Source of the DNA: an uncultured Gemmatimonadales bacterium
GTDB taxonomy: Bacteria; Gemmatimonadota; Gemmatimonadetes; Gemmatimonadales; GWC2-71-9
Length of the DNA: 64,000 bases
NCBI GenBank assembly: GCA_963846945.1
Contig: CAWJXX010000009.1
Coordinates: 6,492-70,491 of the forward strand
Direction of reading: 5' to 3'
Shown: positions 2,037 through 38,011 of the stretch, in pieces
Position numbering within the stretch: position 1 is the first letter of the stretch
How the letters are laid out: each line of letters starts with the position of its first letter
Notes under the pieces: model-generated
Seen by the model: only the letters and a program-made list of their open reading frames with translations
The model's database searches: none
Told to the model about the DNA's origin: nothing
Translations under genes and position numbers: made by a program

Positions 2037-3113
2037 GTGCCCATGCCGGGCGTAACACTCGAACGGGGTATGGGGCCGGAAATGGCTGACATCGGAGCGT
2101 CCGACAGCACCGGAGGGGCACCCTCACCGCGAAGCGCCGGCAACAAGCACGCTCTTGCGTATGTGCTGCTGATACTTCTCACCATCGTCGTGGCCCTTCC
2201 GTTCAGCCTGCGATACGAGGGGATTTTTGCCTGTGGGGCAGGCTGGTATGCACCAGATAGCTACCTGTCCTACTGCAATTCCAAGGGGTTCGGGGACTAC
2301 GACCATGGCGCCTTCTGGTTCGACCTGGAGCCAAAGGCTGTCGAAGCTGCTCGCCAGGCGGACGTGCTCTTCCTGGGCAACAGCCGACTCGAACTGGGCT
2401 TCTCTACCCAGGGGATGTCAGACTGGTTTGCGTCGATTCCAGCACGCCCATACCTCCTTGGGTTCACGCACTTCGGCAACTACCGATTCGCCGCGCCGCT
2501 GCTTGCCCGGCTGCACCCGAAGGCTCGGGCGTACGTGATCAACCTGGATTTGTTTTTCGAGCCCGATGCATCTCCTCCGGCGGCAACAGTGATGCGGGAC
2601 GAATCAGCGGAGAGGCGCTACACGGAAAAGCGCTTCTGGGAGGGACTCCACCGCCCCGTCTGCACCGCCGTTCCAGGCTTCTGCCGTGACGAAATGGTCC
2701 TGTTCCGGTCGCGCACGACGGGGTGGTGGGTACGTCGCGGCTCCCGGCCACAAGCAGGGCCGGTCGCAAACGTCGCGTACAGCGATGCGGTGGATACGAA
2801 TTTGGTGAAGGCATATACGGCTGCCGCGAGGGGATTCCTGTCGCTTCTCCCCGTGCGCGACGGTTGCATCATCCTGACAATGGTCCCTTCGCCCGAGACC
2901 GCCATCGCAACCGGGGTGGCGATTGCCGACGCGTTGAACCTTCCTTTCGTTGCGCCGCGAACCGAGGGGCTATCGACCTTCGACGGGTCGCATCTCGATG
3001 AGCGCAGTGCCGCTATCTGGTCGGCCGCCTTCATTGCAGATGCCGGTCCGATGCTTCGGGGCTGCCTTGCGGCGGCGCGCGAATCGGTTCCGGCTGCCGG
3101 CAGCCGACCGTGA
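2037..3113 (+). CDS. Membrane-anchored SGNH/DltD-like protein (putative extracytoplasmic acyl-transfer partner of the downstream MBOAT)
   Basis: 358-aa ORF with one hydrophobic helix (ALAYVLLILLTIVVALPF). It has an SGNH-like block I (LFLGNSRLELGF) and a block V-like FDGSHLD. The stop lies 2 nt before the next gene. Assignment is by motifs only, and the true start may be an internal Met (~2082). Confidence 0.5.
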   Translation: MPMPGVTLERGMGPEMADIGASDSTGGAPSPRSAGNKHALAYVLLILLTIVVALPFSLRYEGIFACGAGWYAPDSYLSYCNSKGFGDYDHGAFWFDLEPKAVEAARQADVLFLGNSRLELGFSTQGMSDWFASIPARPYLLGFTHFGNYRFAAPLLARLHPKARAYVINLDLFFEPDASPPAATVMRDESAERRYTEKRFWEGLHRPVCTAVPGFCRDEMVLFRSRTTGWWVRRGSRPQAGPVANVAYSDAVDTNLVKAYTAAARGFLSLLPVRDGCIILTMVPSPETAIATGVAIADALNLPFVAPRTEGLSTFDGSHLDERSAAIWSAAFIADAGPMLRGCLAAARESVPAAGSRP

Positions 3114-3114
3114 G

Positions 3115-5060
3115 TTGCGCCATGGGTTTGCAGTCTTGACGTTACGCGGAGCGGCCCCCGCGCGAACGGCATTGTACTGGCTGCCGGAGACGGCGCGCTT
3201 CCGCGACGACCTGCGACAGGCACTGGACGCAGCGGAGCCGGCGCAGCGTCTGGAGCAGCTCACAGCACTCGCCCAGTATCGCCTTGGCTTCCTCGAGACC
3301 ATCCAGCTCGATCATGCCATAGGCCGGGGGCCTCCGGAGGGTGTGCCCGGATTCTCCTCCATTCGCCTCGCCATACTGGGGTCGTCGACAATGGAGCACC
3401 TGGTCCCGGCTATTCGTGTCGCGGGGCTGCGACGCCGGCTCCTTGTCGACGTCTTCGTGGCGCCATACGGCCAGTATCGCCAGGCACTGCTGGGGCCGAT
3501 GGCCGAACTGGTTGTCTTCAGGCCTGATTTCGTCCTGCTATCGATCGCGGGCCGGGGCCGTCGACCGGCATACCGCTAGCGGCCGGTGCGGACGAGGTAG
3601 ATGCCGCGCTCGCTCCGTCGATCGCGGATCTTCGCACGTTGTGGGCACGCGCCCGTGACGTTCTCAATGCCAGCGTCATACAGCAGACCTTCCTCGACGT
3701 CAGCGAACCCCTCTTTGGCAGTCACGAGCGCCTGGTGCCCGGGGCACCGTCGCAGGTCATCGCGCGACTGAATGATCAGGTCGTCAACGCCGCAAAAGAG
3801 GACGCCGTACCGGTTCTGGACATTGCTGGCGCTGCAGCGCGCGACGGGCTCGACGCCTGGTTTGACATCGCGCGCTGGCTGCAGGCCAAGCAGGAGATCG
3901 CTCCCGCTGCTGCCTCCCTTTATGGCGAACTGCTCGTGCGAGTCATCACCACGGCGCGGGGACAGGCGCGCAAGTGCCTTGTGCTCGACCTCGACAACAC
4001 TCTTTGGGGTGGGGTCGTGGGAGACGATGGCGTGTCGGGCCTGCTTCTTGGCGAGGGGAGCGGTATTGGCGAGGCACACCTGGCATTGCAGCGATATGCC
4101 AGGCAACTTGGCGACCGAGGGGTAATCCTCGCGATCTGCTCCAAGAATGATCCGGCGATCGCCGCGGAGGCCTTCCGCGATCACCCGGAAATGGTGCTCA
4201 AGCCATCCGACATTGCCGCATTTGTCGCGAACTGGGAAGACAAGGCCGTCAACCTGGAACGGATCGCGACCCAACTCAACATCGGCATCGACAGCCTTGT
4301 GTTCGTGGACGACAACCCGGCCGAGCGGTCGCGCATACGGCAGAGCCTGCCCCAAGTCGCAGTGCCGGAGCTGCCGCCAGATGCCGCGCTCTACACGCGC
4401 TGCCTGGCCGACGCCGGATACTTCGAGACTGTCAGTTTCACGCCCGAGGATCAGGAGCGGGGTCGGCAGTATGCCGCCAATGCGTCCCGTCAGTCACTGC
4501 TCGACTCCGCCGGCAACCTGGACGCCTTCCTGCGCAGCCTCGACATGGCGGTGATGTGGGGGCCCTGGACCGAGGTTGACCTGCCACGCATTGCACAGCT
4601 CATCAACAAGACCAACCAGTTCAACCCGACTACGCACCGGTACGCAGTGCACGACGTTGCCGCACTCGCGGCCGACGAGAACTGCATCACGCTGCAGTTC
4701 CGTTTGCTGGACCGCTTTGGTGACAACGGCCTCGTTGCCGCCATGATTCTGCGGCCCGTCGCGTCCCAGCCGGATGCGCTCGAGATTGACACATGGGTGA
4801 TGAGTTGCCGCGTGTTCGGTCGGCAGCTGGAGTGGGAAGCCATGAACATTGCCGTGGAACAGGCACGCGGGCGTGGCAAGCGCGCGCTCCGCGCCTCGTA
4901 CATACCGAGCCCGAAAAATGGCGTGGTCAGCGAGCTTTACCCATCGCTGGGGTTCATCTCAATGCCACATGCCGGCTCGACCGACGGGGGTACACGCTGG
5001 CATCTCGCGCTGGAGGAGTACATCCCACACCCCACCCAGATTACCCGGAGGTCCGACTGA
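3115..5060 (+). CDS. FkbH-like HAD-IIIC phosphatase/acyl-loading protein (one frame change near 3545-3580 as assembled)
   Basis: The N-terminal part is in ORF 2950-3579 (RLAILGSSTMEHLVPAIRV). The rest is in ORF 3639-5060, with HAD motifs LVLDLDNTLWGGVVGDDG, ICSKN and FVDDNP. The C-terminal WVMSCRVFGRQLE motif is typical of FkbH-domain proteins. The start (TTG 3115 or 3136) is uncertain. Confidence 0.8.
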
Positions 5061-27595: not shown

Positions 27596-28809
27596 ATGAC
27601 TGGCATTGCTTCTATGGGCATTCGGCGACTCCATGCAGCAGCAACGAAGCGCGATCGGGTCGTCTGCACCATGGGACGTTTGGCCCATGAGTTCATGACA
27701 GTGCTCAGCCTGCTCGGCTTTGTCTCCGCCTCCCTTCTTGGTGTGACCTGGCTCGGATACCCGCTTTTCGCACATGCCATGGCGCGCCTTGCCCGTCGCG
27801 GCTCGACACCCTTCCGACCATTCACCCCGAAGGTATCGGTTCTAGTCGCGACTACAGACGAGCCGCGCCGTCTACGCGAAAATTGCTTCGATCCTCGCCT
27901 CCGACTACCCCAGCGAGCAACTCGAGTAATAGTAGTGGTTTTCGATCTGTCTCACCATCGGCAAATCCCAGCTCTTCGGCATGCAAGTGATCCCCGCGTC
28001 GTGATCGTTCCGGCGATGCGCCCGGCGGTAAGGCGGCTGCCCTCAACGCAGCGACGCGTCGTGCAACCGGTGATGTGCTGGTCTTCACGGACACTCGGCA
28101 GGCGCTAGCGCGCGACGCTATCCCGGAGATCGTGCTCCCACTGCTCGACCCGTCGGTGGGCGCCGTCTCGGGTGCGCTCACCCTTGATTCCGAGTACCGT
28201 ACCTCACCCATCAGCTGGTACTGGAAACTTGAACTTGGTCTTCGTCAGGCAGAGGCACGCTGGCACTCCACCGTGGGGGTTAGCGGATCTCTCTATGCGA
28301 TGCGCAGGGCGCTCTGGGCACCACTACCTGCCGGACTCATTCTCGATGATCTCTACACGCCCATGCGGTTGGTACTCGACGGCCGGCGTGTCATTTTCTG
28401 CCCCGAGGCCGTTGTCCTGGAAACGCGGCAGACCACTCCCAAGCTCGAGTATCAGCGCAAGGTCAGGACGCTCGCCGGCAACGTGCAACTCTGTATGTGG
28501 CTTCCTGCAGTCCTTCGCCCCGATCTCAACCCGATCTGGTTTCAGTTCGTGTTCCACAAGCTCATGCGGCTTGCGACTCCGGTATTGGCGGCGGTAACCG
28601 GCATCTGGCTAGGAGCGCTGGCTTGGAGATACGTGGGAGTCAACCTCACATTTGCGATCTTTGTCCTGACGTTGGCACTGGCTGCGATTGCACTGCTTCC
28701 GGCGCTTCGTGTGCTTCGGCAGGCGTTCGTCTGGGGAGCATATATGATGTCGGCCGCAAGCATCGGCGTGTTACTTGGGGTACGAAGGCAGTGGGACGTT
28801 TGGCGCTGA
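27596..28809 (+). CDS. Membrane glycosyltransferase family 2 (at least 3 frame disruptions, including TAATAG at 27927-27932)
   Basis: ORF 27596-28108 has TM helices, then KVSVLVAT. An alternate frame reads IASILASDYPSEQLE, then TAATAG. ORF 28075-28809 has GDVLVFTDTRQ...SVGAVSG and C-terminal TM helices. Confidence 0.7.
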
Positions 28810-28939
28810 GGCAGCCCCGGATCAGCGGTTCTCCTCGTGCCTCTCCTTCAGCACCGCGCCAGTGAACTTCACTCCGCCGGATGGAATCGCTTCAATAGGT
28901 GCCCCCCTTGCGGGCGGTTTGTTCGTTGGAATGGCTTGC

Positions 28940-29921
28940 GCTCAGCGATAGCCGAGGTAGTTGAAGGAGTTGTAGTACATCTGGTTGAACTGTTTGGTGC
29001 CCTGGGGATAGGCGCCATCAATGCCGGCCTGGAACAGGGTCTCGCCCCGGGTCCGATAGGTGGCATCCCCGGTCTGGCGATAGATCCAGCCCCACTGGGC
29101 GGGGAAGAACATGGTCAGGTCGGGCGAGGGACTCGGGTCGCCGCCGGTGTCCGGATCGCTGCAGGTCCCACTCAGGTACTTGAAGCTCCCCGGACTCCCC
29201 GCCAGCCACTGGGTGGCCCACTGCCAGTCGATGGCCTTCTTCACTGTCTGGACGATCCGCGGATCCGCCTGGAACGAGGTGTAGACCTTGATCAACGCGT
29301 CGTTCTGCAGCGCCAGCATGTAGTTCTTCGTGTAGTTACAGGCGTTCGGCCAGTGGTAGGAGCCGTCCGGCTGCTGCAGCCCGATGGCCGCATTGACGTA
29401 GCCCCGCAGCATCGTGGCCCAGTCCTGCGACGTGTCCTCGAGTTCCCAGGCCAGCAGGGCGCCCAGCGTGAGGCGCTGCATGATCCGCCCCTCGTTGTAC
29501 TGGAACGTCGGATCCGCCATGGAGGCCGGGGGAAAGCCGCCCTGCCGCCCCATGAAGCCCGGCACCGCCACCCGGGAGCGCTCATCCCCCGTCAGCCAGT
29601 AGTGCAGCGCCACCCCCTCCATCTGCGCCTGGTGCGGCGGGGCGCCATAGTTATTCGGCTCCAGATAGTTCGTGCGATAGTCCACCGCGAAGCGGGTCGC
29701 CCGATCCCAGTACTTCGGGTCGCCCGTCCGGACCCAGTACGCATAGTGGTTCATCGCCCGGTCGTAGTAGTCCATCATGGACCAGTCCGCCCCGTACGTC
29801 GCCCACTGCGCATCGGAATACTGGACGAACAAGCTCTCATACTGCGGGAACGCCGAGCCGGCGGCCACAGTGGTCGGCCCCACCAGCTGCGTCGACACCA
29901 GGTAACTGGCCGACGTCGGCA
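28940..29921 (-). repeat. 982-bp block near-identical to 33191-34170 (3' coding ends of paralogs A and B)
   Basis: Direct base-by-base comparison at offset 4251: no difference noticed by eye from 28940 to ~29588. After that there are only a few substitutions and two 1-nt gaps up to 29921. Identity starts 2 nt outside the stop codon. Confidence 0.9.
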
Positions 29922-32703
29922 GCGCGACCGCCGCCGGGATCAGCGGCACCGTACTCTTCGCCCGGTCGCTCGTTCCCGGGGGGTCCCCACGTCCAGCGTC
30001 GCGCTCAACGGCGTGCTCCCCACCGTCGCCTGGAACTGCACCAGGATCGCCCGCCGCGAGCCGTCCGGGTGCTTCCCCTTCAACGCCTCGACGTAGATCG
30101 ACTGCTCCACGCCCCCCAGCAGCACCCGCACCGTTGGCAGGTCCGCGTCCCGCACCTTCCCCGGTGGCAACGGGATCCCGTTGGTCACCAGCACGCTCCC
30201 CGACCCCCCATCCAACCGCCGCACCGTCAGTGCCACCGCGCCCCCACTCGGCGGCGGGGCCCGCCGTCACCGTCACCGCACTCGTGTCCGCCTTCGTCCC
30301 CCCCTGCTGCACCGCGATCACCCGGTACGTCCCCGCCGTCGCCCCCGCCGTATACAGCCCGCCCGTCGAGACCGTCCCGCCCGTCGCACTCCACGTCACA
30401 CTCACGCTCCCCGTCGACCCGTCACTCATCTTCCCCGCCGCACTGAACTGCTGCGTCGCCCCCGCCACGACGCCGCCGTCGCCGGCGTCACATCCACCGC
30501 ACTCAGCGTCGGCGCGGCCGCCGTCACCGCACTCGTGTCCGCCTGTGTGATCCCCTGCTGCACCGCGATCACCCGATAGCGGGTCCCCGCCGTGGTGCCC
30601 GCAGTGTACAGCCCCCCGCTCGTGATCGTGCCGCCCGTCGCACTCCAGGTGACGCTCACGCTCGAGGCACTGCCATCGCTCAACCGGCCCAGGGCCGTGA
30701 ACTGCTGGGTGCGCCCGGCCGCCACCGTGGCCGTCGCACGGAGTCACCTCGACCGCCGTCAATGTCGGCGCCGGCGCCGTGATGGTGATGGCAGCGGTGT
30801 CGGCCTTCGTCCCCCCCTGCTGCGCCGCGATCACCCGGAAGCTGCCCGCCGTCGCTCCCGCCGTGTACAGCCCGCCGCTCGTCATCGTCCCGCCTGTAGC
30901 CGCGTACGTCACCGCGACCGCCGCGGTGCTGCCGTCGCTCATCCGGCCCACCGCCGTGAACTGCTGCGTGGCCCCCGTCTGGAGTGACACAGTCGATGGC
31001 GTCAGCTCGACCGCTGTCAAGGGTCGGCGCCGGCGTTGCAATGGTCACGGCCGCCGTATCTGCCTTCGTGCCGCCCTGCTGCGTCGCGATGACCCGGAAG
31101 GTGCCCGCCGCGTTGCCGGCGGTGTACAGCCCTGCCGTCGTAAACGGCACCGCCCGTCGCGCTCCAACTCACCGACACGCCCGCCGTGCTCGCCGTCACT
31201 CATGCGTCCCACCGCGCTGAACTGCTGCGTGCCGCCGGTCGCGAGGCTCACGGCCGCCGGCGAAACTCGACCGCGGAAGCGTCGGTGCGGGCGCAGAGAC
31301 GGTCACGGCCGCCGTATCAGCCTTCGCCGCCGCCCTGCTGCGTAGCGACCACGCGAAACGTGCCAGCGGTGCTACCGGCCGATATAGGCACCACTGCCGG
31401 TAATCGTGCCGCCGGTGGCCGTCCAGGTCACCGCGACATTTGCGGTGCTCCCATCACTCATCCGGCCGATAGCAGAGAACTGCTGGGCACCACCGGTGAC
31501 CAGGCTGGCATTGGCGGGTGAGACCTCGACCGCTTGAAGCGTGATGGCGGTGGCGGAGTTGCAATCGTGACGGCTGAGGTATCGGCCTTGGTGCCGCCGG
31601 TTTGAACTGCAATCACGCGGAAGGTGCCGCCGGTAGCACCCGCTGTATATGCGCCAGCCGGCGTTACCGTTCCACCGGTGGCGGACCAAGTCACAGCGAC
31701 GCTTGAAGTGCCGCCATCACTCATGCGACCAACGGCCACGAACTGTTGCGCGGCGCCAGGTGCGAGGCTCACGCTCGCAGGACTGATGTCGACCGCCTGA
31801 AGGGTCGGCGCCGGTGCCGTGATTGTGACCGTGGAAGTATCCGCCTTCGTCCCACCCTGCTGCGTCGCAATGACCCGGAATACGCCGGTCGTACTGCCGG
31901 CGGTATATGTCCCGGAGGCGGCAATCGCGCCGCCGGTTGCGCTCCAAGTTACCGGCAGTGCGGAGGTGGAGCCGTCGCTCATGCGTCCGACCGCGGAAAA
32001 CTGCTGTGAAGCACCGGTTAGGAGCATGACGCTCGCGGGCGTCACTTCTACCGCCTGAAGAGTTGGGACGGCCGGACTGATGGTTACCGCGGCAGTGTCG
32101 GCGAATATGCCACCTTGCTGCGCAGCTATCACTCGGAATTGTCCGGTCGTATTCCCGGCGCGGAAGGTTCCGTCGGCCGCAACCGTGCCGCCGCGTGGCG
32201 GTCCAAGTCGCGGAAACGGGGACAGTCGTGCCGTCAGCACGTACGCCGCTGACCGCGAAGGTGAACGCGCCTCCGGGCTGTAGCGTCACAGAGCCTGGTG
32301 CAATGGTGATCGCCGTGAGCGCGGACACGGAACCGGCAACCGTTGCCCGCGAACGGCCCGTGTGACCGGACCGAAGGGCCTTGACGATGTAGTCACCAGG
32401 CGCTGTCGCGCGAAACAGGCCAGTGGTGGTGATAGATGCCCCGGACCCGCCTGAAACGGTCCACTCCACGGGTCCAGATACGTCCGTGCCTTCTATTGTC
32501 TCGTCGGGTGCAACGAAGGCAATGGAATCGCCAGGCGGTACATTGACGGCTTGTGGCGTAATGACGAGAGTATCGAGCGCCGGATCTGGCCCTAGTCCGT
32601 CGACTGGTGCTGGTTCCTGCAGATTGCAGGCGCTGGCAACCGCTGCGATGAGCAGCGAGACGTTGGTGCGGGCGATGGACGATCGGAGCGCGGCGAGTGA
32701 CAT
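28942..32703 (-). CDS. Large surface lipoprotein A: signal peptide/lipobox, ~9 tandem Big_2 (bacterial Ig-like) domains, C-terminal ~480-aa uncharacterised domain (frame changes inside the repeat array)
   Basis: The N-terminus is in ORF 31717-32703 (MSLAALRSSIARTNVSLLIAAVASAC). Big_2 units (VTP...QQFtA.GrMSDGS...V.WSATGG.i...GLYTAG...G.yRVIA) lie in ORFs 31458-32240, 31372-31689, 30680-31150 and 30426-30725. The C-terminal domain is intact in ORF 28942-31041. Confidence 0.75.
30240..32450 (-). repeat. Tandem array of ~258-bp coding units (Big_2 domains) inside gene A
   Basis: Recurrent DNA blocks such as ...ctgctgcaccgcgatcacccggta...gtcgcactccacgtcac...gaactgctgcgt... appear with a ~255-260 bp period. 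About 9 units are present, and neighbouring units are roughly 65-80% identical by eye. Confidence 0.8.
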
Positions 32704-32974
32704 AGATCCTCAGAGCGCGGATAAACCAGCCGAATGGACCGAGCCGCCAAGGGCACGATCTCAAATCGAGATCGGCTCGCTGGCGGCTCGGCTGGCGTGG
32801 CTTCCTGAGAACGGATCCGTAGCCCCGTAGCTCTGCGTCACCGCCTTTCGACGGTTTTGCTCTGAAGCAGCGTGCCTTCACTGCGCCGCGCATGGTGTCG
32901 TGCGGCAGCAGCGAGGACTAAGCTAGCGCTAACGATGTGCTGACACCAACGTTCGTTTTCTAGACACTGTATAG

Positions 32975-32990
32975 TGTGATTTAGGTCACA
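32975..32990. promoter_or_regulatory. Perfect CRP/FNR-type palindrome TGTGA-N6-TCACA upstream of lipoprotein gene A
   Basis: The sequence tgtgatttaggtcaca sits in a ~190-bp AT-rich island (32930-33120), 272 bp upstream of the gene A start (32703). Extra TGTGA/GTCAC half-sites lie nearby (32998, 33078). Confidence 0.5.
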
Positions 32991-33150
32991 TTTATGTTTG
33001 TGAACCGCCTATGCTATAAAGCCTTAGGGGAATATATCTTGTGCGGAAAGCGCTGCTCATGTACTGCTGATAAAATTGTCACTCAATTTTCTATGGCGCA
33101 TGTTGCAACGTGCCGCCGTGATTGCTTCATGGTCGCAATGAACCGACGGC

Positions 33151-33179
33151 CGTGCCGGACCCCGGTGGGGCCCGGCACG
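33151..33179 (-). terminator. GC-rich hairpin 14 nt downstream of the gene B stop (weak terminator candidate)
   Basis: The 8-bp stem cgtgccgg/ccggcacg has a 13-nt loop that contains its own cccc/gggg mini-stem. No clear U-tract follows on the minus strand. Confidence 0.35.
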
Positions 33180-33190
33180 TCGTGCATCCG

Positions 33191-34170
33191 GCTCAGCGAT
33201 AGCCGAGGTAGTTGAAGGAGTTGTAGTACATCTGGTTGAACTGTTTGGTGCCCTGGGGATAGGCGCCATCAATGCCGGCCTGGAACAGGGTCTCGCCCCG
33301 GGTCCGATAGGTGGCATCCCCGGTCTGGCGATAGATCCAGCCCCACTGGGCGGGGAAGAACATGGTCAGGTCGGGCGAGGGACTCGGGTCGCCGCCGGTG
33401 TCCGGATCGCTGCAGGTCCCACTCAGGTACTTGAAGCTCCCCGGACTCCCCGCCAGCCACTGGGTGGCCCACTGCCAGTCGATGGCCTTCTTCACTGTCT
33501 GGACGATCCGCGGATCCGCCTGGAACGAGGTGTAGACCTTGATCAACGCGTCGTTCTGCAGCGCCAGCATGTAGTTCTTCGTGTAGTTACAGGCGTTCGG
33601 CCAGTGGTAGGAGCCGTCCGGCTGCTGCAGCCCGATGGCCGCATTGACGTAGCCCCGCAGCATCGTGGCCCAGTCCTGCGACGTGTCCTCGAGTTCCCAG
33701 GCCAGCAGGGCGCCCAGCGTGAGGCGCTGCATGATCCGCCCCTCGTTGTACTGGAACGTCGGATCCGCCATGGAGGCCGGGGGAAAGCCGCCCTGCCGCC
33801 CCATGAAGCCCGGCACCGCCACCCGGGAGCGCTCATCCCTCGCAGCCAGTAGTGCAGCGCCACCCCCTCCATCTGCGCCTGGTGCGGCGGGGCGCCATAG
33901 TTATTCGGCTCCAGATAGTTCGTGCGATAGTCCACCGCGAAGCGGGTCGCCGATCCCAGTACTTCGGGTCGCCCATCCGGACCCAGTACGCATAGTGGTT
34001 CATCGCCCGGTCGTAGTAGTCCATCATGGACCAGTCCGCCCCGTACGTCGCCCACTGCGCATCGGAATACTGGACGAACAAGCTCTCATACTGCGGGAAC
34101 GCCGAGCCGGCGGCCACAGTGGTCGGCCCCACCAGCTGCGTCGACACCAGGTAACTGGCCGACGTCGGCA
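33191..34170 (-). repeat. 980-bp block near-identical to 28940-29921
   Basis: Second copy of the direct repeat. Beyond 34170 identity drops to roughly 75-80%, with a further ~95% island (34510-34710 versus 30250-30450). Confidence 0.9.
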
Positions 34171-35773
34171 ACGCCACCGCCGCCGGGATCCCCGGGATCG
34201 CCCCCTTCGCCCGGTCGCTCGTTCCCCGCGGCGTCCCCACGCAGCGTCGCGCTCACGGCGGCTCCCCACCGTCGCCGTAAACTGCACCAGCACCGCGCGC
34301 ACCGACCCGTCCGGGAACCGCCCTTCCAGCGCTTCCACGTAGCTCGGCTGCTCCACCCCGTTCAGGAACACCGCCACGCTCCCCAGGTCCGTCGGCCGCA
34401 CGTCGCCCGGCCGCAACGGGATCCCGTTCGACACCAGCACACTCCCCGACCCACTCCCCACCCGCTGCACCGTCAACGCGATCGAGCCCGCCGCGGCGGC
34501 GGCGGCGCACTCGCCGTCACCGTCACCGCACTCGTGTCCGCCTTCGTCCCGCCCTGCTGCACCGCGATCACCTGGTACGTCCCCGCCGTCGCCCCCGCCG
34601 TGTACAGCCCGCTCGTCGAGACGCTCCCGCCCGTCGCACTCCACGTCACACTCACGCTCCCCGTCGACCCGTCACTCATCTTCCCCGCCGCACTGAACTG
34701 CTGCGTCGCCTTGGCAGCCACGCCCGCGGTGGCCGGCGTAACGACCACCGACGAGAGCGTCGGCGTCGCAGGCGGCGTCGCGGCGGCGTCGTGCCACCAC
34801 CCGTGCCGCCGCTTCCGACTGTGACAATGGAGGTGTCGGTCTGCACGTCACCCTGGCGCGTGGCGATTACCCGGTAGGTCCCGTTCGTGCTCGGCGCCTT
34901 GTACATGCCGCTGCTCGAGATCGTCCCGCCCGTCGCCCGCCAGTTCACCATGACGCCATAGGTCTTGCCGTTGAGCGACTTGCCCACGGCGGTGAACTGC
35001 TTGCTGGCGCTCGGCGCCAGGCTGACCGTCGCTGGCTGCGTTTCGATCCAGAAAGTGGAACGCTTCTGCTGTGCCGTGGGCGTTGTCGGCGCAGGTGCCG
35101 GTGCCGACGTGGATGACGAACCCGACGTCACGGTCACCGTTGCGGTGTCCGCGATCGAGTCGCCGGTCCGCATGAGGATCACCTTGTAGGTGCCCGCCGT
35201 GGCCGGCGCGGTATAGAAGCCGGTCGAGGTGATGGTGCCACCCGTGGCGGACCACACCGGGGTAATGCCATACGACTTGCCGTCGCTGGTCTTGATCGCG
35301 CCCGAGAACTGCGTGGTCTTGCCCGCGGCCAGCGTCACGCTGCCCGGCGTCACCTCGATCCAGAAACTCGTGCTCACCGCGTACGCGATCTGTTGCGACA
35401 CCCCATTCTCAACCGACACCACCGCGCTCCGCGATGTGCCGTTGTTCGCACGCGCACTGACCAGGGCAGGACCGGTAGCTGACGGAGCGTGAAAGAGGCC
35501 GGTCGAGTCAACCGTGCCGGCCGTGGCGGACCAGCTCACCAGCGCTGTTGCCAGGACGCCTGAGGCCGCGCTGTCCGTGGCGACGAACTGAACATCGCTC
35601 CCCGGCTCGACGATCACGGTATCGGGACTGACCAGCAATGTCCCGGACAAAGTCGGCTCATTGTCGCCAGGGCCGGCCAACCCGTCAGTAGTGGTCTTGT
35701 CGGTACTGCACCCGGCAAAAATGAGGGTGCCCACCGCCATGAAGGCGGCAAGCGTGCGATTGAGTTTTTGCAC
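33193..35773 (-). CDS. Surface lipoprotein B, paralog of A: lipobox, 4-5 Big_2-like domains, same C-terminal domain interrupted by two 1-nt gaps relative to A
   Basis: ORF 34676-35773 begins MQKLNRTLAAFMAVGTLIFAGCS. The C-terminal domain is split over ORFs 33833-34240, 33543-34055 and 33193-33822. Single-base gaps near 33950 and 33842 appear when it is aligned with gene A. Confidence 0.75.
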
Positions 35774-36153: not shown

Positions 36154-36912
36154 TCAAATATCGACTGGCGGTCGGCGCAGAAGCACAATGAGGTTGCTTC
36201 GCAGGCTCGCGTTTGCCGGGCTCCGCAGGGCGCGTAGCCAGGCCAGCTCGAACACGGCAAGCGGCGGGATCACGCTGAAAACCGGAGGCGATGACAGGTA
36301 GGCCAGCTTCTCTACGACGAGGCCCGCTTCGGAGGCGGCGCTTGCAATGTCAGATTCAGTATTCGCCCGATAGTAGGCGGGATACACATCCGCAGCAGTC
36401 CTCCCCTCGAGCATCACCGCCATGGCGACCTTGAGTGCCTCGGGCATGACCTTCGATGCCCGCACCGTATACCCGAGCGCGTTGGGGGTGTGGAATAGAA
36501 ACGCCCCACCGGGCTTCAGCACTCGGGCAATTTCAGCGAACTGGAGAGAGGGATTATCGAAGTGTTCGACCACGACATTCGCCGTCACCAGTCCGAAGGT
36601 CCCCGATGCGAATGGGAGGTGAGGTACGCCGGCGAGCACGCGGCAGGTGAAGCTCCGGTGACGACGAATCGCATCCAGGTCGAGATCGGCACCCACCACC
36701 AGGCGGGTGCCCCGCACGATCTCCAGCTCCTTGCGCGCACGCCACGAAGGGAGGAGCTGGTGGCCACAGCCGATGTCCAGCCAGGGTTCCTCGGGCTGGT
36801 GCGCTGACTCGAGCGCCTCTTCATAGGCGCTCTGGGCGTTGCTGTTACCGGGGGCGATGAACCGTTCGAGTGCACTCGACCACTGGTACATCCGGGCACG
36901 GAGTCCGGCCAT
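36154..36912 (-). CDS. Class I SAM-dependent methyltransferase (Methyltransf_11-like)
   Basis: Intact 252-aa ORF with motif I WLDIGCGHQ, plus LVTANVVVEHF and LKPGGAFLFHTPN. Confidence 0.8.
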   Translation of the reverse strand: MAGLRARMYQWSSALERFIAPGNSNAQSAYEEALESAHQPEEPWLDIGCGHQLLPSWRARKELEIVRGTRLVVGADLDLDAIRRHRSFTCRVLAGVPHLPFASGTFGLVTANVVVEHFDNPSLQFAEIARVLKPGGAFLFHTPNALGYTVRASKVMPEALKVAMAVMLEGRTAADVYPAYYRANTESDIASAASEAGLVVEKLAYLSSPPVFSVIPPLAVFELAWLRALRSPANASLRSNLIVLLRRPPVDI

Positions 36913-36918
36913 GCCCGG

Positions 36919-37467
36919 CTAACCGCCCAGCGCCCGCAGCGCTTCCTCGCCGTAGAACAGCCTGATGTACTTCGCCTGGATCGGCGTGAGCCGGCGCACC
37001 GCCCAGGACAGGTGCACGAAGTGCGGCTCATGCGGTGGCGACAGCGGGAACATGCCGATTTCATGCGGCAGGTGGTTGCCCTTCCGGGTGTTGCAGGCAC
37101 TGCAGGCCGTGACCACGTTGGTCCACTCGTTCCCGCCGCCACGCGAAATCGGGATCAGGTGATCCCGGGTCAGGCACTCCCGCGGCTTGAGCTCAGCGTG
37201 GCTGCGATGGCAGTACTGGCAGCGATAGCTGTCACGAGCGAAGAGGAAGGTGTTGGTGACCTGGCGACGGAAGCGGCGGGGAACGTGGATGAACTTGACG
37301 AGGCGGATGATGACAGGTTTAGGAAGGGAAAGCCTGGCACTTCGAACCAGGTCCAGCGCATCCGCCTCGACGATCTCGGCCTTGCCCTCGATGACGAGCC
37401 GAAGCGCCCGACGCATGGGCACCATCGTCAGCGGTTCGAATGAGGCATTCAAGGCCAGGCAGCGCAA
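36919..37467 (-). CDS. HNH endonuclease family protein
   Basis: Intact 182-aa ORF with the HNH core CQYCH...DHLIPISRGGGNEWTNVVTACSACNTRKGN. The stop lies 6 nt before the methyltransferase start. Confidence 0.85.
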   Translation of the reverse strand: MRCLALNASFEPLTMVPMRRALRLVIEGKAEIVEADALDLVRSARLSLPKPVIIRLVKFIHVPRRFRRQVTNTFLFARDSYRCQYCHRSHAELKPRECLTRDHLIPISRGGGNEWTNVVTACSACNTRKGNHLPHEIGMFPLSPPHEPHFVHLSWAVRRLTPIQAKYIRLFYGEEALRALGG

Positions 37468-37567: not shown

Positions 37568-38011
37568 CTACCTGCCAATGATCCCACGCAATCGCCCGGC
37601 CACTCGCTCCCGGGCCCGCTCACTGCGGGTAATCACCAGCAGCGTGTCCTCGCCGGCGACCGTACCGATCACCTCGCTCCACGATGCCTGGTCGATCGCC
37701 ACGCCAACCGCACCCGCCGACCCATTGGCGGTCCGCAACACGAGCAGCGGCCCCACCCCGTCCATGCCCGTCAGCAGCGCGCCCAGGACAGCCTGAAAAT
37801 CCGGCCGGACGCCGGACGCACCCGGCTGCGCGTAGTGAGAGCCGCGTCCGTCCGTCAGCTTGGCGAGGCCGAGCTCGCGCACATCTCGCGAAAGCGTCGC
37901 CTGCGTCACGGAGAATCCCGACGCCGCCAGCGCCTTGCCCAGCTCGTCCTGGCTCGAGATCCGCTGGTTCTGCACGAGCCGGAGTATTGCGGCATGTCGC
38001 TGCAGCTTCAT
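37568..38011 (-). CDS. argR: Arginine repressor
   Basis: Intact 147-aa ORF. The winged-helix N-terminus is RHAAILRLVQNQRISSQDELGKALAASGFSVTQATLSRDVRELGL, and the C-terminal oligomerisation motif is GTVAGEDTLLVI. Confidence 0.85.
   Translation of the reverse strand: MKLQRHAAILRLVQNQRISSQDELGKALAASGFSVTQATLSRDVRELGLAKLTDGRGSHYAQPGASGVRPDFQAVLGALLTGMDGVGPLLVLRTANGSAGAVGVAIDQASWSEVIGTVAGEDTLLVITRSERARERVAGRLRGIIGR

Follow-up and report, generated by a model that had tools for sequence, protein, structure and literature searches.

A near-identical 3' block in two tandem genes for predicted Gemmatimonadota lipoproteins and its probable origin by gene conversion

The tuf genes and the rRNA operons are examples of the concerted evolution of bacterial duplicates. 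Other prokaryotic cases, for example the PE/PPE genes of Mycobacterium tuberculosis and other repeat loci, are attributed to a RecA-type non-reciprocal exchange that leaves patchy tracts and makes paralogs more similar than expected (PMC6053082, PMC12046097, PMC13061034). In the babA, babB, and babC paralogs of Helicobacter pylori, the middle or 5' part varies while the homologous region at the C-terminus is >90% alike, and intragenomic gene conversion among them yields chimeric genes, including through exchanges of the 3' region (PMC4552749). A comparable locus is described here in a 64,000-nucleotide stretch of DNA (the window) from an uncultured Gemmatimonadales bacterium (GenBank assembly GCA_963846945.1, contig CAWJXX010000009.1, positions 6,492 to 70,491 of the forward strand). 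Two adjacent paralogs in the window, gene 1 and gene 2, are predicted to encode lipoproteins and share a nearly identical 3' block. Judging from the sequence, this block is probably best explained by a recent gene conversion between old tandem paralogs.

The two genes resemble the bab genes in that they are surface-protein paralogs in which a homologous C-terminal region is joined to a variable remainder, with the appearance of conversion chimeras. However, the bab loci are dispersed, whereas the genes of the window are adjacent. Conversion among the bab genes is tied to CT-repeat phase variation and host adaptation, whereas no phase-variable repeat was seen in the window. Furthermore, the converted part is an outer-membrane β-barrel in the bab proteins and an enzyme-like toroid here. 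The other cases of concerted evolution also differ from this locus, as they are documented across strains or species, whereas the present case comes from a single noisy sequence in which just part of the gene is homogenized.

Identity and divergence along the two genes

Gene 1 (28942-32703) and gene 2 (33193-35773), and likewise all of their parts given below, lie on the minus strand. Gene 1 encodes a signal peptide with a cysteine (VASAC), nine Big_2-like repeats (30256-32571), a β-sandwich, and an α/α toroid. Gene 2 encodes a lipoprotein-type signal peptide (IFAGC), four Big_2-like repeats (34500-35632), a β-sandwich, and a toroid. An earlier note on this DNA had described the signal peptides and the Big_2 counts as different and the 3' ends as nearly identical, and both descriptions hold.

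The near-identity was established by locally aligning two segments, 28.8-32.9 kb and 33.05-36.2 kb, with each other and by a repeat finder. The segment 28940-29921 (982 nt) pairs with 33191-34170 (980 nt) with four differences in total. Two of them are substitutions, at 29589 (C/T) and 29726 (G/A), and two are gaps, at which copy 2 lacks one base opposite 29592 and one opposite a C of the CCC run at 29700. Copy 1 forms the 3' end of gene 1, encodes the toroid, and keeps an intact frame up to the stop codon (28942-28944). Gene 2 ends in copy 2 (stop codon 33193-33195), which carries the two deletions, near 33843 and 33950, as well as the two substitutions. The block begins with the letters GC followed by TCA, the minus-strand form of a TGA stop codon. 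In other words, the matching sequence extends 2 nt past the stop codon, as the earlier note had stated, and the 40 nt beyond are unrelated in the two copies. The block is the sole long repeat of the window, nothing else being repeated at such length.

Both borders of the block are sharp. Identity is ≥99.6% over the 982 nt compared with 70-83% in the next 340 nt, a slightly wider range than the ~75-80% given in the earlier note, which was right about the fall itself. In successive steps of 100 alignment columns past 29921/34170, identity runs 0.83, 0.70, 0.78, 0.88, and 0.96, and then ≤0.68. The block is thus followed by a divergent segment, which comprises a linker and the β-sandwich in gene 1 (29922-30261, with a frameshift near 29975) and the β-sandwich in gene 2 (34171-34511, with at least one frameshift near 34240). 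Next comes a second island of high identity, 30262-30474 against 34512-34724, where the earlier note had placed one of ~95%; it is 94% identical without gaps and ~97% over its core. This older tract lies in the last Ig-like (Big_2) repeat of both genes, and similarity beyond it is at the level of the repeats. A larger ancient duplication taking in the preceding Big_2 repeats was rejected, as those repeats are just 52-74% alike. The earlier note's claim that homogenization is confined to the catalytic domain therefore does not hold: the block coincides with the toroid, but the last Big_2 repeat is a second tract.

Divergence at synonymous (dS) and non-synonymous (dN) sites was estimated by the Nei-Gojobori method. 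The toroid block shows at most two substitutions over 327 codons, and its dS is ~0. The β-sandwich (30015-30242 against 34261-34488) shows a dS of 0.39 and a dN of 0.26 over 76 codons, and the last Big_2 repeat shows a dS of 0.10 over 71 codons. Could purifying selection alone keep the toroids alike? No part of the family is more conserved than the toroid, as such a reading would have it. However, the synonymous sites of 327 codons do not differ at all, the neighboring codons have a dS of 0.39, and the toroids of paralogs elsewhere have a dS of 0.7-1.3. Protein-level selection cannot freeze third codon positions. Purifying selection as the sole cause, which the earlier note had named as an alternative, is therefore refuted and retains practically no probability. 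The three levels of divergence (~0, 0.10, and 0.39) rather suggest at least two separate non-reciprocal exchanges, the latest of which would be very recent.

Further evidence comes from tandem paralogs in other genomes. Tandem arrays of the family are present in three Gemmatimonadaceae bins (loci L002, L003, and L011), with three adjacent copies in each. These comparators are 68-80% identical at the nucleotide level, their longest exact run is ≤32 nt, and their dS is 0.7-1.3 in both domains. None of them has any such block, so the pair in the window is exceptional. Tandem arrays are a trait of the family. That the paralogs of the window are old is seen from their affinities to homologs, which differ between domains. 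In the β-sandwich, copy 1 is 79% identical to the homolog P0002 of another organism and 68% identical to copy 2, and copy 2 is 59% identical to P0002. The common toroid is 81% identical to the homolog P0001 and 66% identical to P0002. As the affinities differ from domain to domain, the tree changes along the gene.

In the proposed mechanism, a non-reciprocal homologous recombination would recently have replaced the 982 bp that code for the toroid in one paralog with those of the other. The 3' border of the conversion tract would be the end of homology at the stop codon, and the 5' border would be the boundary between the β-sandwich and the toroid. An earlier and separate exchange would have homogenized the last Big_2 repeat, and the β-sandwich between the two tracts would have retained the older divergence. 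Whatever its origin, the pair of 982-bp direct repeats, 4.25 kb apart, is a substrate for deletion or amplification.

Consensus noise and competing explanations

Neither gene is an open reading frame as assembled. There are ~12 frame switches in gene 1 and ~5 in gene 2, two of the latter being the one-base gaps of the block. These patchy ±1 frameshifts, which the earlier note did not mention, extend to other genes of the window. The gene for PBP1a, a class-A penicillin-binding protein (~38.3-41.5 kb), is split over three frames with its motifs otherwise intact: Transgly occupies frames 0 and 1, positions 37-228 of Transpeptidase lie in frame 1, and frame 2 carries the KTG region. Cut-off domain matches reveal further broken frames in genes for a GT2 glycosyltransferase (27596-28809), an epimerase (18.2-20.0 kb), an oxidoreductase (20.2-21.5 kb), and an aminotransferase (~42.9-44 kb). 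A codon-bias Viterbi hidden Markov model places ±1 switches at ~2-4 per kb in patches (~9.9-12.9, 18.2-19.9, 28.9-35.8, and 38-48.5 kb) and finds 50-64 kb essentially clean. Homopolymers were not supported as the cause, as the shift sites lie outside runs and the PBP1a region has few long runs and many shifts. The ±1 shifts are probably consensus errors of a partly unpolished assembly. Naive annotation of the window would call both genes, and even PBP1a, pseudogenes.

At such a rate, ~4-7 indels are expected between two identical copies of 982 nt, and two were seen. The four differences of the block are therefore uninformative about evolution. Consensus error is their likeliest source, and the real copies would then be identical or nearly so. 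If the differences were real instead, gene 2, and perhaps gene 1, would be a decaying pseudogene or a silent donor cassette that was recently converted, which is not exclusive of gene conversion. All four differences do fall in copy 2, where they are disruptive or non-synonymous (both gaps are frameshifts), and copy 1 matches the homologs at these sites, where it reads LTGDERSR and VRTGDPKYW as in P0001. However, like ±1 switches riddle the motif-intact PBP1a gene and other biosynthetic genes, there are no in-frame stop substitutions, and errors are the more economical explanation. Decay of gene 2 is therefore unlikely. A diversity-generating retroelement (DGR) or another programmed cassette system was also rejected, as the 64 kb contain just two copies and the differences show no bias toward adenines; no search was aimed at a reverse transcriptase.

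Low consensus quality also makes assembly cross-talk, the alternative raised in the earlier note, less remote than it would otherwise be. The toroids might be similar in the genome and made near-identical by a collapsed node or mis-assigned reads during assembly or polishing. The frameshifts mark a low-quality consensus in exactly the same region. Furthermore, spanning a 982-bp repeat takes hybrid or long-read assembly, and such pipelines can homogenize near-identical repeats; the repeat pair is a trap for assemblers and read mappers alike. On the other hand, cross-mapping cannot turn ~75% similarity into identity, so the true copies would still be very similar. The copies are not byte-identical, given their four differences, which speaks against a single node pasted twice, and tandem arrays of the family occur in short-read metagenome-assembled genomes. 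Both copies have unique flanks on both sides, with sharp borders at the stop codon and at the domain border, and each gene has its own downstream stem-loop. The spacer between the genes (32872-33192, minus strand) is unique. It contains a stem-loop just past the gene 2 stop and an AT-rich part at ~32960-33090, and nothing in it resembles what lies downstream of gene 1. The flanks and stem-loops argue against a collapsed or mis-joined repeat, and an artefact has a small probability overall.

Another way to obtain the mosaic would be a young duplication of the 3' part, followed by replacement or shuffling of the upstream parts through the Big_2 repeats or foreign DNA. Gene 1 is a compositional chimera, as this would predict. 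The GC content of its third codon positions (GC3) rises from 0.60-0.72 over the signal peptide and the first five repeats to 0.85-0.95 from repeat 6 onward to the stop. The switch lies near repeats 5-6 (~31.2-31.4 kb), the part richest in frameshifts, and might stem from GC-biased conversion or from a 5' part of foreign origin. The mosaic of domain affinities to P0001 and P0002 also fits a young duplication, as does the disappearance of flank similarity beyond 2 nt though the neighboring domain has a dS of just 0.39. However, the scenario requires that the duplication ended exactly at the stop codon and that at least two replacements followed to yield a mosaic of 100%, 75%, and 97%, and tandem paralogs at a dS of 0.7-1.3 are the ancestral state in related genomes. 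Mechanistically, it ends in the same homologous exchange. A young duplication is improbable on this balance.

Gene conversion, which the earlier note had favored, is the reading best supported by the contrast in dS, the incongruence between domains, and the comparators, but the few differences between the copies give it no evolutionary signal because of the ±1 noise. Several points weigh against it. No relative close enough for a comparison of paralogs with orthologs was found (the best has 74% amino-acid identity, and the contigs are short). The incongruence test rests on short segments of 58-76 residues and on two outgroups. The identity of the block is that of an assembled consensus whose quality is demonstrably low in the same region. 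Furthermore, the frame of block copy 1 stays intact over 1008 nt, whereas the remainder of gene 1 has ~12 in 2.8 kb, so the noise is uneven.

The shared module and the composition of the genes

Both genes probably encode secreted, lipid-anchored proteins with a variable Big_2 stalk. In bacterial lipoproteins, the N-terminal signal peptide ends in a lipobox with an invariant cysteine. Read by eye against a PROSITE-type rule of this kind, both proteins have a lipobox-type cysteine, at ...IAAVASA|C in gene 1 and ...GTLIFAG|C in gene 2. The signal peptides are otherwise unlike, beginning MSLAALRSS in gene 1 and V/MQKLNRTL in gene 2. The cut-off of Pfam Big_2 (PF02368) is 22.8 bits. The nine repeats of gene 1, each of 86 residues, exceed it with 37.4 bits. 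The repeat of gene 2 falls under it at 18.1 bits, yet is homologous to those of gene 1.

Both genes finish in a common module of ~435 residues that had no match in Pfam, NCBIfam, or PDB sequence searches. An AlphaFold (AF2) model of the module, built on 67 homologs, has a predicted local distance difference test score (pLDDT) of 96.5 and a predicted template-modeling score (pTM) of 0.94. In the model, a β-sandwich (residues ~1-110) is followed by an all-helical α/α toroid, and the near-identical block begins at module residue 110, that is, at the predicted transition from β to helical structure. Foldseek searches of the PDB gave weak matches (TM 0.3-0.5, E 5e-4 or weaker) to (α/α)6 glycan enzymes, namely the PL-type lyase 5no8, N-acylglucosamine epimerases, GH76, and GH88.

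How does the module compare with known (α/α)6-barrel enzymes? Its modeled toroid may have the overall fold of the PL27-type lyase 5no8, GH76, GH88/GH105, and the AGE-family epimerases, some of which also have an N-terminal β-sandwich. However, these matches are weak (TM 0.4-0.5, E ~1e-3, 10-15% identity) and come with no relationship at the sequence level. Within the family, R255, G296, and Y358 of the module are invariant, and D163, H216, D222, D329, D341, and N422 are near-invariant. To call the toroid a catalytic domain, as the earlier note did, is sensible structurally and putative biochemically; the label is unproven, with just a weak fold similarity to glycan enzymes behind it.

The β-sandwich has a dN/dS of ~0.67 between the two copies and of 0.1-0.7 in the paralog pairs of other genomes, which suggests relaxed or diversifying selection. 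GC3 is 0.90-0.95 in the 3' parts of both genes (28945-31144 and 33193-35359). The 'core' genes at 38-64 kb lie below this (0.81-0.87), and the polysaccharide genes at 5-28 kb and the 5' half of gene 1 lie far below it (0.60-0.77). A plus-strand open reading frame at 28837-30096 was rejected as an antisense artefact of high GC, as both GC3 and the homologs put the coding on the minus strand.

A c-di-GMP-I riboswitch and the wider family

The leader of gene 1 contains a cyclic di-GMP-I (c-di-GMP-I) riboswitch aptamer (RF01051; 32779-32871, minus strand), which was absent from the earlier note. The covariance-model match scores 54.9 bits against a gathering score of 35, covers model positions 1-87 of 87, and ends 76 nt before the gene 1 ATG. 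A hairpin after the aptamer (32735-32798) overlaps the 3' strand of the aptamer, and GAGGA lies 5 nt ahead of the ATG at 32703. No second riboswitch was found upstream of gene 2 (none at E ≤1). Together with the contrast between the stalks, this means that two paralogs with a common toroid differ in both stalk length and regulation. The AT-rich sequence at ~32960-33090 probably carries the gene 1 promoter. A consensus scan of 28.5-36.3 kb yielded no promoter-like site, and terminator-like sites occurred at chance level.

At least 12 further loci of Gemmatimonadota have an RF01051 aptamer directly upstream of a module-carrying open reading frame, which makes the association of riboswitch and family a conserved one. 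The aptamers were located in L002 (2819-2909 and 7168-7256), L003 (7136-7225), L004/L005 (8555-8642), L011 (4383-4471), L019 (4169-4255), L081 (488-588), L082 (8117-8217), L086 (1344-1443), L087 (856-942), and L088 (4217-4307). In arrays, the aptamer typically precedes a long, Big_2-rich first gene. The targets of c-di-GMP-I (GEMM-I) riboswitches are typically surface and matrix genes. The present case differs from such regulons in that neither Pfam nor NCBIfam has a model for the downstream family. In a text search, no publication was found that ties c-di-GMP riboswitches to Gemmatimonadota genes of this kind.

The module has ~75 homologs, all unnamed and essentially all from Gemmatimonadota metagenome bins and contigs. 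The closest have 74% and 68% amino-acid identity and are encoded as single copies on contigs of 1.3 and 3.5 kb. In the search for close relatives, a scan of genome contigs gave a best identity of 46%, one metagenome scan gave none, and another gave a best of 52%. The genes next to the pair encode GT2 glycosyltransferases, a methyltransferase, a sugar epimerase/dehydratase, and an oxidoreductase, and the setting of the pair is polysaccharide biosynthesis.

Partial homogenization of tandem surface-protein paralogs is textbook genome dynamics, to which the present case adds little, and the riboswitch-controlled toroid family may be a more promising lead than the conversion. In a bolder reading, which is doubtful, the identity would be real and repeatedly maintained (at least two tracts), and the family would be an undescribed, Gemmatimonadota-wide set of riboswitch-controlled, secreted, glycan-active enzymes that act on the exopolysaccharide of their own cells. 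If this were true, one toroid 'business end' would be kept on two proteins that differ in build and in regulation, one with a nine-repeat stalk behind a c-di-GMP-I riboswitch and one with a four-repeat stalk and no riboswitch, while the β-sandwich would be free to diverge (dN/dS ~0.67). A riboswitch-preceded toroid family beside polysaccharide genes would offer a handle on c-di-GMP-controlled matrix remodeling in a poorly studied phylum.

Distant relatives of the module (L020-L080) have 24-31% identity, mostly over module residues ~5-290, and occur in Myxococcota (Kofleriaceae and Polyangiaceae), Oligoflexus, and a Parcubacteria bin. Gemmatimonadota is therefore not strictly the sole phylum in which the family occurs. 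Other riboswitches were seen near some family members. In L004 (11809-11906, minus strand) and L005 (11830-11927, minus strand), the family gene is closely followed by a c-di-GMP-I-GGC variant (RF03167, 70 bits) encoded on the other strand. In L015 (5707-5885) and L016 (462-659), family members are preceded at a distance of a few kb by cobalamin riboswitches, which probably belong to neighboring genes. Directly upstream of gene 2, on the same strand, are genes for a methyltransferase (36154-36912), an HNH endonuclease (36919-37467), and ArgR (37568-38011); a role of the HNH nuclease as an initiator of recombination is pure speculation. On the contig of P0002, the second-closest homolog (L089), a DDE transposase gene (2139-3389, minus strand) lies immediately downstream of the family gene.

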